Assembly: GCA_039588275.1 (NCBI GenBank)
Contig: JBDHAC010000043.1
Location: forward strand, 1 to 39,726
DNA from: Gemmatimonadota bacterium
Lineage (GTDB): Bacteria > Gemmatimonadota > Gemmatimonadetes > Palauibacterales > Palauibacteraceae
Length of the DNA: 39,726 bases
Reading direction: 5' to 3'
Below, in pieces: positions 27,001 to 39,726 of the stretch. Position numbers: made by a program. Positions within the stretch are counted from its first letter, which is position 1; each line of letters begins with the position of its first letter.

Positions 27001-30000
27001 AAAGGTCGCGGTAGTCCTCGAAGTCCGGGTACGAGGAGGAGCATCTGGGGTTGCCCCGTCGGCAGGTTGTGTAAATGGCAGCGAGCCGGTCCGGGTCATC
27101 CACGGCGGGGCGGCGGAGGATCACCTGATTCGCGATGCTGAAGATCGCGGTGTTGGCGCCGATGCCCAGCGCGAGCGTAAGCACCGCACCGACCGCAAAC
27201 CCGGGGTACCGCCTCATCTGGCGGCCGACGAGCCGCACATCTGCCTGCAGGTCTCGCGCGAACCCGACACCCCACGACCAGCGAGCTCGGTCCTTCTGCC
27301 GGCCGATCGAGCCAAATCGGTTGAGGGCCTGTCGGCGGGCCTCGTCCTCTCCCATCCCCTGACCTACGAGCTTTTCGACCTCCATCTCCAGGTGGAAACG
27401 GATCTCATCGTCCAGCTCTTGCTCCATCAAACGCGGTGCGAGCAGTGCCTTGAGCCTGAAGAGGAGGTCATGGATCCATCGCATGTGTCTGTTCCCGCCT
27501 TGGTCTAGGTCGTCGCCAGGATCACGTGTACAGCCGTCGAGAGCCGTTGCCACCGCTCCGTCTCGGCGCCCAGCTGACTCGTTCCGGGCGCGGTCAGCTG
27601 GTAGTACCTGGCTCGACGCCCGTTCTCGGTAGTCCGCCAGTAGGAGCGGATCCACCCCTCGCGCGTGAGGCGATGGAGCGACGCATACAGGGAGCCCTGA
27701 TTCACCTTCAACGCCTCGCTCGAGAGACCCTGGATCCGCTCACTGATTCCCCAGCCATGCATGGGTTCGAGCGAGAGGACCTTCAGGATCAGCATATCGA
27801 GGGTCCCCTTGATCATGTCGGGCTTCACTCTTGCCATCGTTGCTCCTCGGACGCACGGGTTGTTCTCGAGGTCGACGAGTCGACCCGCACTCTCCTCTCG
27901 GTAATCAAGAGTAACATCTCTCGGTAATCAAGGGTAGGACCCCCCCTGTCAGCGGGCTGGTTGCGAGACGGAGTCCGAACCGAGATCCTGAACGACCAAC
28001 CGGCCACACCCGGAGTCACCGAGAGACGAGCCCCGCATGCCACAAGAAGGCGTCATCAAGTTCGAGATGGAGCACGAGCGAGTGCCCCTCGAGCCCCGGC
28101 GCTTCGGCGAGCTCGCCTGCAAGCTGATCGCGTGGCGGGAGATCATGTCGCTGACCGGGCTGGTCGGGCAGGATCCGGGGCGATACGAAGGGGCGGGATA
28201 CGGGAACGTGAGCGCCCGAGTCGGGCCCCCCAACGCCGGGCTTGGCCGGCGATCCTTCCTCATCACCGGCACCCAGACCTCAGGCGAGCGCTGCCTCGGC
28301 CTGGATAATTTCGCCGTCGTGGAGCGCTACGATTACCGTCACAACCGGGTCCGAAGCCGGGGGTGTCTCGAGCCTTCCTCCGAGTCCATGACGCACGGCG
28401 CCGCCTACGACCTGGGCCCCCAGATCCGCTGCGTGCTCCACGCCCACTGCCCGGTGGTGTGGCGACGGGCGCGGCACCTGCGGCTCCCCACCACGAGCCC
28501 GAACGTCCCATACGGCACGCCCGAGATGGCTGCCGAGGTGCACCGGCTGTACCGGGAGACCGTCCTGCCCGAGCGCTGCATCCTCGCCATGGGCGGGCAC
28601 GAGGACGGGATCCTGGTCTTCGGACGCAATCCGGAGGAGGCCGGTGAGGTGCTCCTGCGTTGGCTGGCGAGGGCCTACGAAGCGGCGTGCGGAGAGGCGG
28701 ACGCCCGTCTCTGTCGGCGCTAACCGGGACGGCCGCAGAAGCGCAGCGTCTTCACCGCGTAGGAGATGAGCACGGGGCAGCCCCGGATCACGGGAGCGCC
28801 CACGAGCATCGTCGGTCGCTCCGCGAGCCCGAGGATCCGGAAGATCGGTAGGTCAGCCACCTGGATCTCCATGGAATCCCAGGTCGTAGCGCCGAGCTCG
28901 AGCTCCTCGATCCGACCGCCGTGCGACTGCACGATCTCGTCCCCGACGCCGCGACGTCGCTCGCTCACCGGATCCTCGCTCGTCTGGATGCCGGCCCGCT
29001 CGGCCGCCGACCAGTTCAACATCAGGTGTCGCGCACCGGTATCGAACAGCCCCGTGACCGCCTGTCCATTCACCGTGACGTCGAGGTTGATCAAACCGCT
29101 CCCGGAAAGCCGGAACGGGAGTCCATCCTCCGGGGCGAGCACGCCGGCGAGGGCTTCGGGGGCGGTTCCTGGCTCGTACAACCGAAGGACTCCGCCGGGG
29201 ACGTCGATCAACACGTCGAAACGGCGCAGGAACGGCGTCCCGATGATGCCCGCGATCGGCTCACCCGCGTCGGTGGTCAGCACCGAATCGGCGATCACGA
29301 TCGCACGCCGGCTCCCGGCATCGACTCCACCCACCCGGAGCGCGGGTAGGTCGACGATGTCCACCTTCGCCGCCCCGCTCGCCCCGTAGGCCGCGACGTT
29401 GTCCACCGGTTCGAGCCCCAATCGACTCGCGAGCCCCTGGCTGATCGCCCCCTGGGCGGCCCCCGTGTCGAGGATGAGATCGACCGTGTCCCCCGGCGCG
29501 GTCACGCCGGAAACGACCAGCCAGCCCCCCACGGTGCGCAGTGGGATCTCGACTACCGGCGCCAGCGTCGTCGACCCATTGGTCTGGGCGACGCCGGGGA
29601 GGGCGAGAAGGCTCAGGCACAGGGCCACACACGGGGCGCACACGGGGCTTGGGCCCCGCAGGGGGCGTGGGCCGCGCACGGGGCGCGCCCGTCGGCGTCG
29701 GGTGGAGAGTCGCGATCGGTTCACGCAACTAGGACATCCGCTCTCGGGAGGCGGTTGCCCGCGTCGGGAGACGCAGACCCGCCCCGAGCTTTTGGACGAC
29801 GGGAGATGACGTGCGTCAGGAGGTTCTGGCTACTCCGGTAACCTGAGAGCCACCAGCTCGGCCTCGACTCCCGCACCCGCAACGGCCGCCACGATGTACT
29901 GCACGCCCTCGTGCATGTACGTCATGGGCGCCGTGTTGGTGGTGGCCGGTAGCTCGAGCCGGGCGATCTCCTCGCCGGTCATCTTGTCCACCGCGTGCAG

Positions 30001-39000: not shown

Positions 39001-39726
39001 GACCTCCGACCGGAAACCGCCCCCCCGCCGGTCGATCTGGATGATGCGCCCGGGGATCGGGTTCCACAGATCACGCCACAGTCCCCACGCCGTGGCTCTG
39101 AAACGCGCGCGATCACCGAGCGGAAGATCGAGGGCCACGCCGCCCTGTCCCTGCGTCGCCTCCTCGCCCGAGCCCTGCGAGATGATGAACGAGCGAGCCA
39201 TCTGCGGGTTGTCACGCGCGTCCTCGAGAGCCAGGGAGCTGGGATTCTGAGCGAACGGCGTGCTGTACAGGTTGAGGAGACCTCGAACCTCGCCGGTCTC
39301 GCCCACGCGCCCCGCGACGCGCACGTTCGCGCGGAAGATCTCGGCCTCCGAGTAATCCCGGAAACCGTCGGTCCGCAGGTAGCTCAGGCTGCCCAGGTAC
39401 GAGACGTCACCCGTCGAGCCGGAGGCCTTGAGCCGAGTCTGGATGAAGCCGTGGCTCCCGCCCACCAGGGTCGGCTCGAGAAGCAGGCTCCGATCGGCCG
39501 GCAGCTCCGTACGGTAGCTGAGGACACCGCCGCCGGCATTCCCGTACAGAGCCGAGGCAGGCCCCCGAATGACCTCCACCCACCCGGCCGAAGCGAGGTC
39601 TAGGTTGGTCAGCGTGCTCTGGCCGTCCGCGAGCGTGAGCGGGATCCCATCCGCCAGGACACGGACGCCCCGCACACCGAATTGGGCGCGTGCCCCCTGG
39701 CCCCGCATCGTGACGCGGTCACCCAG

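Follow-up and report, generated by a model that had tools for sequence, protein, structure and literature searches.

Evidence for PQQ scavenging in a Palauibacterales genome that also encodes a quinoprotein with asparagine at the Gcd Asp466 column

The window analysed here is the whole 39,726-nucleotide contig C43 of the genome assembly (G000) of an uncultured marine Palauibacterales bacterium. It carries the gene of an exported eight-bladed quinoprotein with a small cytochrome c gene upstream of it, three further genes that we regard as neighbours only, and the middle and 3' parts of a gene for a TonB-dependent receptor related to PqqU. These features and the other eight-bladed quinoprotein loci of the genome are collected in Table 1.

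Table 1. Features of the window, and eight-bladed quinoprotein loci on other contigs of G000 (positions without a contig name are window positions).
Feature	Position	Strand	Evidence or remark
Exported eight-bladed quinoprotein, 671 aa from ATG 31845; open frame to GTG 31875	29830..31845	-	PF01011 614 bits
Motif HHDVWNYD; Asn342 codon 30822-30820	30814..30837	-	Asn342 at Gcd Asp466 column; Asp344 kept
Arg87, Arg134, Lys139, Arg225	31171..31587	-	Columns of Gcd Glu217, His262, Arg266, Asp354
Exported mono-haem cytochrome c, 139 aa	31863..32282	-	PF13442 28.8 bits, cut-off 27
FKBP-type peptidyl-prolyl isomerase lipoprotein; neighbour only	32342..32899	-	PF00254 82.6 bits
Membrane-anchored TPR protein; neighbour only	33096..34949	+	TPR_14/TPR_19 barely over cut-off
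Long open frame, up to 901 aa; neighbour only	34976..37681	+	0 families in Pfam and NCBIfam
3' part of single pqqU, barrel C-terminus	37839..38567	-	NF041535 115 bits, profile 434-670; tblastn with E. coli PqqU 470-697
73-bp tandem duplication, shifts pqqU frame	38495..38640	.	76-base exact match at offset 73
Middle part of pqqU	38563..39726	-	Signature residues; 5' end on contig C82
Eight-bladed quinoprotein	C22:53879	+	PF01011
Eight-bladed quinoprotein	C19:57236	-	PF01011
Broken eight-bladed quinoprotein, three pieces	C19:49180-51019	+	PF01011
Eight-bladed quinoprotein	C57:35389	+	PF01011; TIGR03075 547 bits
Eight-bladed quinoprotein	C76:1086	-	PF01011; TIGR03075 624 bits
Eight-bladed quinoprotein	C10:103585	-	PF01011; TIGR03075 505 bits
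Eight-bladed quinoprotein	C10:63532	-	PF01011

The receptor pieces belong to one gene. C43 and C82 share a terminal stretch of 113 bp at 100% identity (39614-39726 = C82:15393-15505), one of nine contig-end overlaps of 113-114 bp in the assembly, and the tandem duplication, which is absent from the congener G099, is the sole gap of pqqU relative to that genome. Read through, the protein aligns without gaps to the intact genes of two congeners (88% and 87%) and to residues 29-686 of E. coli PqqU (E 1.6e-83), so that it comprises a full-length plug and barrel; an 821-aa permease gene lies upstream both on C82 and in G099. With a PqqU profile the three pieces score 615, 389 and 173 bits, and the next-best TonB receptor of G000 scores 131. 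The duplication is most likely an assembly error; the source data comprise one run, available as contigs, none of which spans it. A second 73-bp tandem copy is present on C78. The initial annotation had listed PqqU-like receptors on both C43 and C82, and this we reject in view of the overlap, the frame shift and the single intact gene in congeners; its figures of about 30% identity to E. coli PqqU and about 6 kb to the quinoprotein/cytochrome c pair stand.

At the positions of E. coli Y99, R304 and R365 the G000 receptor carries Phe (39681-39679), Arg (39075-39073) and Arg (38934-38932). This PqqU signature (aromatic Y, F or W at 99, here Phe; R304; R365) is kept in all 36 orthologues of the order that were aligned, out of about 62-65 found, and is lacking in each of five other receptors checked. 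Glu replaces K274, as it does in 24 of the 36, and E274 is among the PqqU variants described in PMC12124388; Q84, Q121, N477, Y481 and R536 of the E. coli protein are not kept. NF041535 is the best-scoring family (the window pieces score 180 and 115 bits, the intact genes of the congeners 321 and 337, and relatives about 300-365), and since its cut-off is 1200 the receptor is no equivalog by the NCBI test. Genes matching TIGR03866/03863/03871, or quinoprotein genes, adjoin pqqU in four of 13 neighbourhoods fetched (G019, G029, G053 and G108); in the other nine no PQQ gene turned up in the scan, which took in 53 of 172 called proteins. A second, signature-negative receptor lies beside the signature-positive one in G029, G053 and G108, and G000 has three MotA/ExbB-family genes. 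G000 very probably relies on PQQ from outside, which a true PqqU would import.

Genes for PQQ synthesis were sought with family models and with the proteins of G108, a genome of the order that has the full pqqABCDE operon. No PqqA, PqqB or PqqD family match in G000 exceeds its cut-off, and G108 is positive in each; tblastn with G108 PqqA, B, C and D gave no match, and with PqqE only radical-SAM matches at 26-34%. The absence of pqqC and pqqE asserted in the initial annotation is thus upheld with a positive control, and is extended to pqqA, B and D, which had not been searched. The pqqABCDE set of a producer is accordingly missing from the G000 assembly, whose completeness is 85.8%. Both congeners (84% and 91% complete) lack PqqA, B, C and E, as had been said of their pqq genes; G099 has a single lone PqqD-domain match. 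In the order, one of 145 genomes, and none of the 75 with at least 90% completeness and at most 5% contamination, has PqqC above its cut-off. PqqE exceeds its own in two, which are the apparent producers: G108, and G050 (507 bits, at a contig edge). G108 remains the sole PqqC genome but is not the sole PqqE genome, as it had been among the four tested before. A weak PqqC match in G017 proved to be CADD (269 bits, cut-off 200). In the phylum the PqqC model matches 87 of 401 genomes, one of which, G198, is unpublished.

The 13 matches of a PF01011 profile search of G000 resolve into eight eight-bladed loci. Three six-bladed GSDH-family genes (C58:8507, C11:6398 and C45:33457), overlooked in the initial annotation, raise the number of PQQ-type enzymes to about eleven. 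Eight loci had been described as seven intact genes and one frameshifted; the number holds, but only five genes are clean and three are damaged, as 54 bp present in G099 are missing from C10:103585, among them the motif at the Gcd E217 column, and C57 lacks 13 bp, which places its signal peptide in a different frame. By type, four are GDH-like, three resemble type II quinohaemoprotein alcohol dehydrogenases (ADHs) and one has an N-terminal haem; most are lipoproteins. The type II enzymes (C57, C76 and C10:103585) exceed the TIGR03075 cut-off of 480 bits, in agreement with the earlier assignment, and each shares the C-terminal haem motif, CxxCH, of known type II ADHs (PDB 1KB0, 1KV9), although two of the three (C57 and C10:103585) are damaged in the assembly. 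The Cys-Cys pair and D-x-T are present in C57 and C76; in C10:103585 and in its G099 orthologue the pair is missing and the motif reads D-x-N. At the same base column the C22, C19:57236 and broken C19 genes have D-x-D and the window gene N-x-D. All G000 proteins stay below the cut-off of 650 bits for acido-empty-quinoprotein group A (TIGR04528), a name that presumably marks quinoproteins in genomes without PQQ synthesis; the best score is 373 and the window gene scores 202. The D-x-D of PMC11996626 is not decisive for the lanthanide type in the GDH branch, because the Ca/Mg-using E. coli Gcd also has D-x-D.

The window protein matches PF01011 over the whole profile, and both its model and a fold search place it in the propeller superfamily (AlphaFold2, pLDDT 91.5; closest folds PQQ alcohol dehydrogenases, TM about 0.6-0.66). 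Its clade, which has support 99 in a tree computed without two fragment rows, is nested in the GDH-like branch. It is of the soluble GDH-like type, is 30% identical to Gcd and shares its fold, and Trp281, Thr301, Lys370 and Asp344 keep the Gcd Trp404, Thr424, Lys493 and Asp468 columns, as they do in the clade. It differs from Gcd in having R, R, K, R and N at the E217, H262, R266, D354 and D466 columns; MAFFT and hhalign give an identical register at 217, 266 and 354. We take Gcd Asp466 to be the catalytic Asp, Asp354 to be an acidic metal ligand, and Glu217 and Arg266 to be PQQ contacts. Scores for TIGR03074 (390 bits, cut-off 833, match from profile position 149) and TIGR03075 (181, cut-off 480) are both too low. 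The protein is thus not a Gcd-type glucose dehydrogenase by its D466 column, its D354/E217/R266 columns, its TIGR03074 score or its lack of an N-terminal membrane anchor. Its nearest kin are the membrane-bound glucose, quinate and shikimate dehydrogenases (TIGR03074; E. coli Gcd) and the anchorless "putative GDH group 1b/2" of PMC11996626, where every GDH-clade sequence carries D-x-D, in contrast to the N-x-D found here.

The Asn is present in 120 of the 120 nearest homologues and at 78 of 79 loci. At the Arg225 column homologues have Arg, Gln or Val, and an acidic residue is kept one place before it (Asp in 115 and Glu in 2 of 120; Glu in 78 of 79), which makes a shifted metal ligand possible. 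The N-x-D motif occurs in 39 of 145 genomes of the order (0 for a reversed-pattern control). By record titles the clade spans four phyla, with members in Gemmatimonadota, Acidobacteriota, Woeseiaceae, Pseudohongiellaceae and Rhodothermales, and the cytochrome c neighbour recurs: its gene lies upstream of the quinoprotein orthologue in both congeners, homologues are found at 19 of the 79 loci, and G000 has a single copy. This cytochrome is the probable electron acceptor of the window quinoprotein. With Asn at the catalytic Asp, Arg or Gln at the metal-ligand column and the same cytochrome c often adjoining, the window enzyme is probably no standard alcohol or sugar dehydrogenase, which makes its place in the alcohol- and sugar-oxidising battery of the initial annotation doubtful. 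In G515 pqqC lies about 32 kb from an N-x-D gene; of five N-x-D genomes outside the genus g20 (below), three lack both PqqC and PqqU. The window-gene orthologue of the G099 assembly has a 32-bp deletion. An ESM Atlas search returned PF01011 clusters alone. The D-lactate dehydrogenase of G. japonicus (PMC13230246) was set aside as an altered-site precedent, since the passages located there name no active-site residues. Nothing relevant to the clade was found in the literature searched, which held few subscription journals, so the clade may already be published.

Eight-bladed enzymes are found in 92 of the 145 genomes of the order, and in the other 53 none matches at E<=1e-30; six-bladed enzymes are found in 125. 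Per-genome PF01011 counts are lower bounds, as the best eight candidates were scored. Outside g20, 48 of 109 genomes have both PqqU and an eight-bladed enzyme, 14 PqqU alone, 8 the enzyme alone and 39 neither, kin among them not being independent. The PqqU-positive set excludes G034 (a fragment) and G133 (signature failure); PqqU-like fragments in G002, G011 and G034 would move two enzyme-only genomes to the class with both. An obligate requirement for PQQ as a vitamin of the lineage is not supported, given the 39 genomes with neither, the 53 without an eight-bladed enzyme and the two with synthesis genes. Uptake through PqqU accords with G000 and with the co-occurrence outside g20, but does not extend to g20, where the enzyme sets are largest.

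This sister genus (Ca. Palauibacter, sponge-associated) has quinoproteins in 36 of 36 genomes, about a dozen in each, and six-bladed enzymes likewise in all; N-x-D is present in 34, and canonical D-x-D and Cys-Cys enzymes are retained. None of the 36 has PqqC, PqqE or a signature-bearing PqqU; the G133 receptor was rejected, having Q/A at 99 and D at 365. No replacement importer emerged beside the g20 quinoproteins: of the three receptors that recur as neighbours, in 18 loci examined, one is closest to ZnuD, one to haem/B12 receptors and one to haem receptors, and G141 has the same enzyme without the ZnuD-like neighbour. Nor did a second peptide-cofactor pathway, since the common radical-SAM match of 110-130 bits is AhbD/NirJ-like (checked in G138, where this radical-SAM/SPASM gene resembles haem-synthesis genes and has cytochrome genes around it). 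The TIGR04528 score of one g20 enzyme is 548 bits, against the 650 needed.

The closest known system is that of E. coli, in which PqqU (YncD, b1451; PDB 6V81, 9C4O) and Gcd allow PQQ scavenging without synthesis (PMC12124388; 10.1101/2022.06.07.495086). G000 resembles it in its TonB-dependent receptor, which has the signature and for which PqqU is the best PDB and NCBIfam match, and in having quinoproteins without pqqA-E. It differs in the low identity and altered pocket residues given above, and in some eleven client enzymes that are exported without the Gcd membrane anchor. We consider it likely that G000 is a PQQ scavenger of this type. Apo-quinoproteins, most of them lipoproteins, would be exported without any PQQ being made, and the one PqqU would catch PQQ from seawater or pore water. 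As in the known families, PQQ with Ca or a lanthanide would form holoenzymes in the periplasm, and the respiratory chain would receive their electrons by way of haems in the enzymes themselves or of small cytochromes c; the activities would be optional, starting once producers provide the cofactor. The window enzyme has most likely retained PQQ binding and hands its electrons to the cytochrome c encoded next to it. Within this explanation we lean slightly towards its using a different substrate, likely anionic or already activated, by a route without an Asp base, because of the Asn at the base and the extra Arg/Lys in the pocket.

That the receptor instead carries lanthanides or another small anion, as a member of a YncD-like group, with PQQ entering by porins only, seems to us improbable. 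A study of 74 lanthanide TonB-dependent transporters, some in Gemmatimonadetes, found them misannotated as YncD/PqqU (10.64898/2026.07.10.737718), the receptor has only 30% identity to PqqU and several different pocket residues, and K274E inactivates E. coli PqqU; yet the same study sets such transporters apart by the loss of PQQ-binding residues that all 36 aligned orthologues retain, and the signature-negative second receptors of G029, G053 and G108 are better candidates for that role. Very improbable is a pqq operon in the 14% of the genome that the assembly lacks. The family does include two producers, and the operon of G050 is itself cut at a contig edge; against this, the congeners lack PqqA, B, C and E, and PqqC is absent from every high-quality genome of the order.

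Four lesions in nine related genes might also suggest a decaying system in which pqqU and three of the quinoprotein genes have become pseudogenes. We regard this as quite unlikely, as the damage consists of deletions of medium size or a duplication, in-frame stops are absent within the matches, the remainder of each damaged gene is 86-91% identical to the congener, the G099 assembly is damaged in a different gene (the window orthologue), and the 73-bp tandem copy has its counterpart on C78. Another alternative is that part of the enzyme set, above all the N-x-D clade and the g20 enzymes, works without PQQ, either "empty" with another cofactor or as non-catalytic PQQ-binding or storage proteins. 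The replaced base and metal-ligand column, the 34 g20 genomes with N-x-D and no PqqC, PqqE or PqqU, and the existence of TIGR04528, which one g20 enzyme approaches, all point that way. We nevertheless think it unlikely: Trp281, Thr301, Lys370 and Asp344 are kept, the substitutions add positive charge that fits the three carboxylates of PQQ, cytochrome c recurs as a neighbour, pqqC lies near an N-x-D gene in G515, g20 retains D-x-D, Cys-Cys and six-bladed enzymes, and the radical-SAM/SPASM gene checked in G138 is haem-synthesis-like.

The initial annotation is thus largely confirmed, and what it describes is mostly known. PQQ scavenging, our preferred reading for G000, had been put forward as new, but Munder et al. 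2025 (PMC12124388), who call PQQ a common good, reported PqqU in 183 Gemmatimonadetes genomes and found that, of all PqqU carriers, only 23% have synthesis genes; G000 shares their phylum, signature and scavenging interpretation. Their main text has 0 matches for Palauibacter or KS3-K002, and its supplementary data may list these genomes. As had been stated, the papers on the order that we searched do not mention PQQ, and we found none with both "Palauibacter" and "PQQ". What the present work adds to the published idea is a census of 145 genomes across the order; fresher still are the N-x-D site of the window enzyme and the g20 enzymes without synthesis genes or PqqU.

PQQ users far outnumber makers in the order (92 genomes with eight-bladed and 125 with six-bladed enzymes, against two with PqqE, of 145), so these bacteria of sediments and sponges rely on neighbours for periplasmic oxidation. 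The g20 genomes raise the question of whether sponge tissue is rich enough in PQQ for a symbiont genus to drop its high-affinity importer and yet keep the largest enzyme sets. Quinoprotein chemistry without the catalytic Asp, if real, would bear on the 26.5% of ocean PQQ dehydrogenases that have neither a Ca nor a Ln motif (PMC11996626). A tentative joint reading, which we hold possible rather than probable, is that N-x-D proteins form an undescribed class of quinoproteins widespread in sea and soil, in which Asn and Arg/Gln replace the catalytic Asp and one metal ligand and an Arg/Lys-lined pocket would serve another kind of reaction (on an anionic or non-alcohol substrate, perhaps with no metal, or with a cofactor that is not PQQ) that feeds a dedicated cytochrome c. 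In Ca. Palauibacter, either co-symbionts would supply the host tissue with enough PQQ for entry by diffusion alone (from E. coli data, at least tens of nM) or another importer or cofactor would exist. If that reading is true, the "PQQ domains" of sponge microbiomes that have been counted among the eukaryote-like proteins would be a cross-fed metabolic battery.

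The initial annotation counted two PqqU-like receptors in the studied genome, G000 (4.1 Mb in 103 contigs, 85.8% complete), whose contig C43 makes up the entire window. The final 113 bases of contig C43 are the final 113 bases of C82, reversed, one of nine such contig-pair overlaps (113-114 bases) in the assembly. The receptor frame is shifted at 38495-38640 by a 73-bp tandem duplication, the sole gap there relative to congener G099; another exact tandem duplication of this length lies at C78:12346. Read through, the receptor covers residues 29-686 of E. coli PqqU at 30% identity and aligns gap-free with the intact genes of congeners G099 and G098 (88% and 87%). 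Overlap, duplication and alignment thus make gene calls g03494 and g02554+g02553 parts of a single pqqU gene.

Features of the quinoprotein and receptor region of the contig
Feature	Position	Strand	Remark
Class II aldolase/adducin-like gene	28037-28723		next to quinoprotein in both congeners
Two-domain clan AA aspartic protease, exported	28720-29724		immediately downstream of quinoprotein; missing there in G098, G099
Quinoprotein	29830-31845	-	
Mono-haem cytochrome c	31863-32282	-	
FKBP	32342-32899	-	
TPR protein	between FKBP and receptor	+	
Long frame without family	34976-37681	+	no Pfam/NCBIfam match, export-like appearance; genes of comparable size at equivalent place in both congeners (749, 774 aa)
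TonB-dependent receptor, two frames	contig end (region 29830-39726)	-	

Munder et al. (PMC12124388) define PqqU by Y/F/W99, R304 and R365. The G000 receptor has F, R and R there, and the signature is kept in all 36 aligned order orthologues, G000 counted (about 62-65 were found in the order), while five further receptors all fail it. According to a 2026 preprint, lanthanide transporters get misannotated as PqqU, but without these residues (10.64898/2026.07.10.737718). Position 274 is E in 24 of the 36, K in 11 and Q in one, the E form being described as a possible metal co-binding variant (PMC12124388). Against a PqqU identity count the absence of Q84, Q121, N477, Y481 and R536 of the E. coli protein and a score well below the NF041535 cut-off. 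Genomic context is in its favour: four of 13 fetched neighbourhoods (G019, G029, G053 and G108; 53 of 172 called proteins scanned) have PQQ-accessory or quinoprotein genes at a distance of up to about 8 kb from the orthologue, three of the four with a second, signature-negative receptor alongside. The receptor does lie 6 kb from the quinoprotein/cytochrome c pair, as first noted, but this link is loose in G099 (about 11 kb) and unseen in most other genera, and by itself is therefore weak evidence. A PQQ role is also supported by co-occurrence with eight-bladed enzymes: outside the sister genus g20, 48 genomes have both, 14 PqqU alone, eight the enzyme alone and 39 neither, counts in which kin are not independent and many genomes are incomplete. 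Across the order, 92 of 145 genomes carry eight-bladed and 125 six-bladed enzymes. The 39 genomes with neither speak against PQQ as a vitamin required by the lineage.

At G053 L080:255-17999, the genes clustered with PqqU encode a WDYD-motif quinoprotein, TIGR03871/MoxJ-like and TIGR03866 proteins and a second receptor, together with H4MPT-linked C1 functions (TIGR03123 over cut-off). The cluster is likely a lanthanide methylotrophy island; neither PqqC nor PqqE was found in that genome. At G029 L079:2831-5164 and G108 L082:3483-6083, the gene after an ADH-type quinoprotein encodes a sulfocyanin/rusticyanin-like copper protein, which might accept the electrons instead of a cytochrome c.

The reported lack of pqqC and pqqE in the G000 assembly was borne out. 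Proteins of the complete pqqABCDE operon of order member G108 matched only generic radical-SAM proteins there, and family models for PqqA, PqqB and PqqD, not searched earlier, agreed in finding none. PqqC passes its cut-off in one of 145 order genomes and PqqE in two, the second being G050, whose operon is cut by a contig edge. Across the phylum, 87 of 401 genomes (unpublished G198 among them) score over the cut-off of this PqqC model, so it is able to detect Gemmatimonadota PqqC. Weak PqqC matches were a CADD-family protein (over that family's cut-off) at G017 L109:5937-6641 and a similar protein at G030 L110:622-1320; G108 has an additional PqqB-like gene (C48:15403-16245; 128 bits, under cut-off) apart from its operon.

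A PF01011 profile search of G000 gave eight quinoprotein loci. Four are GDH-like without membrane anchor (C22, 43% identical to E. coli Gcd; C19:57236; the window gene; and C19:49180, in three pieces) and three, as first annotated, are type II quinohaemoprotein ADH-like, all over the TIGR03075 cut-off. C10:63532 has an N-terminal haem motif, and most of the proteins start, judged by eye, with a lipoprotein-like signal. Seven had been called intact; five are clean, with C10:103585 and C57 short of 54 and 13 bp relative to G099. These lesions look like assembly noise, since the window orthologue of G099 has one too, of 32 bp. A further contig overlap separates the tandem genes C10:103585 and C76. 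Three more genes are of the six-bladed GSDH family, every one below the TIGR03606 cut-off.

The window enzyme has a predicted PQQ propeller fold (pLDDT 91.5), with PQQ alcohol dehydrogenases as top fold matches. Where Gcd has Glu217, His262, Arg266, Asp354 and Asp466, it has Arg87, Arg134, Lys139, Arg225 and Asn342 (MAFFT and hhalign; Arg134 by MAFFT). In Gcd, Asp466 acts as the base and Asp354 as a metal ligand, and Glu217 and Arg266 contact PQQ. All 120 nearest homologues share Asn342, Lys139 and Arg134, and 119 share Arg87. A second set of 79 loci, collected with a g20 paralogue and biased toward the motif because a WNYD pattern was among its six seeds, has Asn in 78 and the other three residues in 79. 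Of the top 150 clusters at 50% identity, 147 cover the base column, with Asn in 18 and Asp in 124; N-x-D is thus a minority branch, and in a quick tree forms one group (support 99) within the anchorless GDH-like enzymes. Within the order the motif is found in 39 of the 145 genomes, namely all three g1 genomes, 34 of 36 of g20, G048 and G057. Ocean enzymes have been sorted as D-x-D versus D-x-A/T/S with 26.5% left unassigned, and the available text does not single out N-x-D (PMC11996626).

Trp281, Thr/Ser301, Asp344 and Lys370 are retained, as is an acidic residue one place ahead of Arg225, which makes it plausible that the protein binds PQQ and that its metal site is shifted. Of the 79 loci, 19 contain a homologue of the window cytochrome c, and both congeners have one upstream; this speaks for an active oxidoreductase rather than a dead enzyme. 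The enzyme is probably not a standard dehydrogenase and would act on a different substrate; for it the proposed role in alcohol and sugar oxidation is doubtful, given Asn at the Asp466 column. Arg stands at the Glu217 column in both sister clades of the N-x-D group (G138 L094:7639-9612 and L092:6451-8403), and the base column of one of them carries Glu (W-E-Y-D), suggesting stepwise remodelling.

We consider it quite probable that G000 scavenges PQQ through PqqU. TonB would drive uptake, holoenzymes would form with Ca or Ln, and electrons would pass from the quinoproteins to cytochrome c. Such scavenging, first put forward as new, is already published for E. coli and, by count, for 183 Gemmatimonadetes, synthesis genes being reported in 23% of PqqU carriers (PMC12124388). 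In keeping with the initial annotation, PQQ, quinoprotein and pyrroloquinoline have no matches in the available texts of PMC10469786 and PMC11596202, and no literature pairing "Palauibacter" with "PQQ" was found; PqqU scavenging for this order is unstated in the texts searched, although supplements may cover it.

Genus g20 has the enzymes without the importer. All 36 genomes carry eight-bladed quinoproteins (nine loci plus three six-bladed in closed genome G138), none has PqqC or PqqE over cut-off, and a profile of order orthologues found no signature-bearing PqqU: 35 of the 36 reach at most 89 bits, as against 674-1096 for full-length orthologues outside g20. One G133 receptor (344 bits) failed the signature. 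Lack of both PqqC and PqqU is not unique to g20, since three of the five other genomes with the N-x-D clade share it. E. coli PqqU is reported dispensable at about 30-fold above 1 nM PQQ (10.1101/2022.06.07.495086), and diffusion has already been proposed for phyla without PqqU (PMC12124388). The 92-95% relatives of a g20 protein bear the name Ca. Palauibacter, and the order's sponge MAGs are described as one genus (PMC10469786), which we infer to be g20. PQQ domains have been tallied as eukaryote-like proteins in sponge studies (PMC9531527); those of g20 belong to full-length dehydrogenase genes. A g20 GDH-like clade (G138 L089:12031-13998, G144 L099:6328-8265) carries CRFCH, a CxxCH string, where Gcd has its "CRG" loop, with another, Cys-free HRG motif ahead of it; the string may form a disulfide loop or bind haem within the propeller. 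The N-x-D clade and this sponge genus without an importer are the parts worth taking to the bench.
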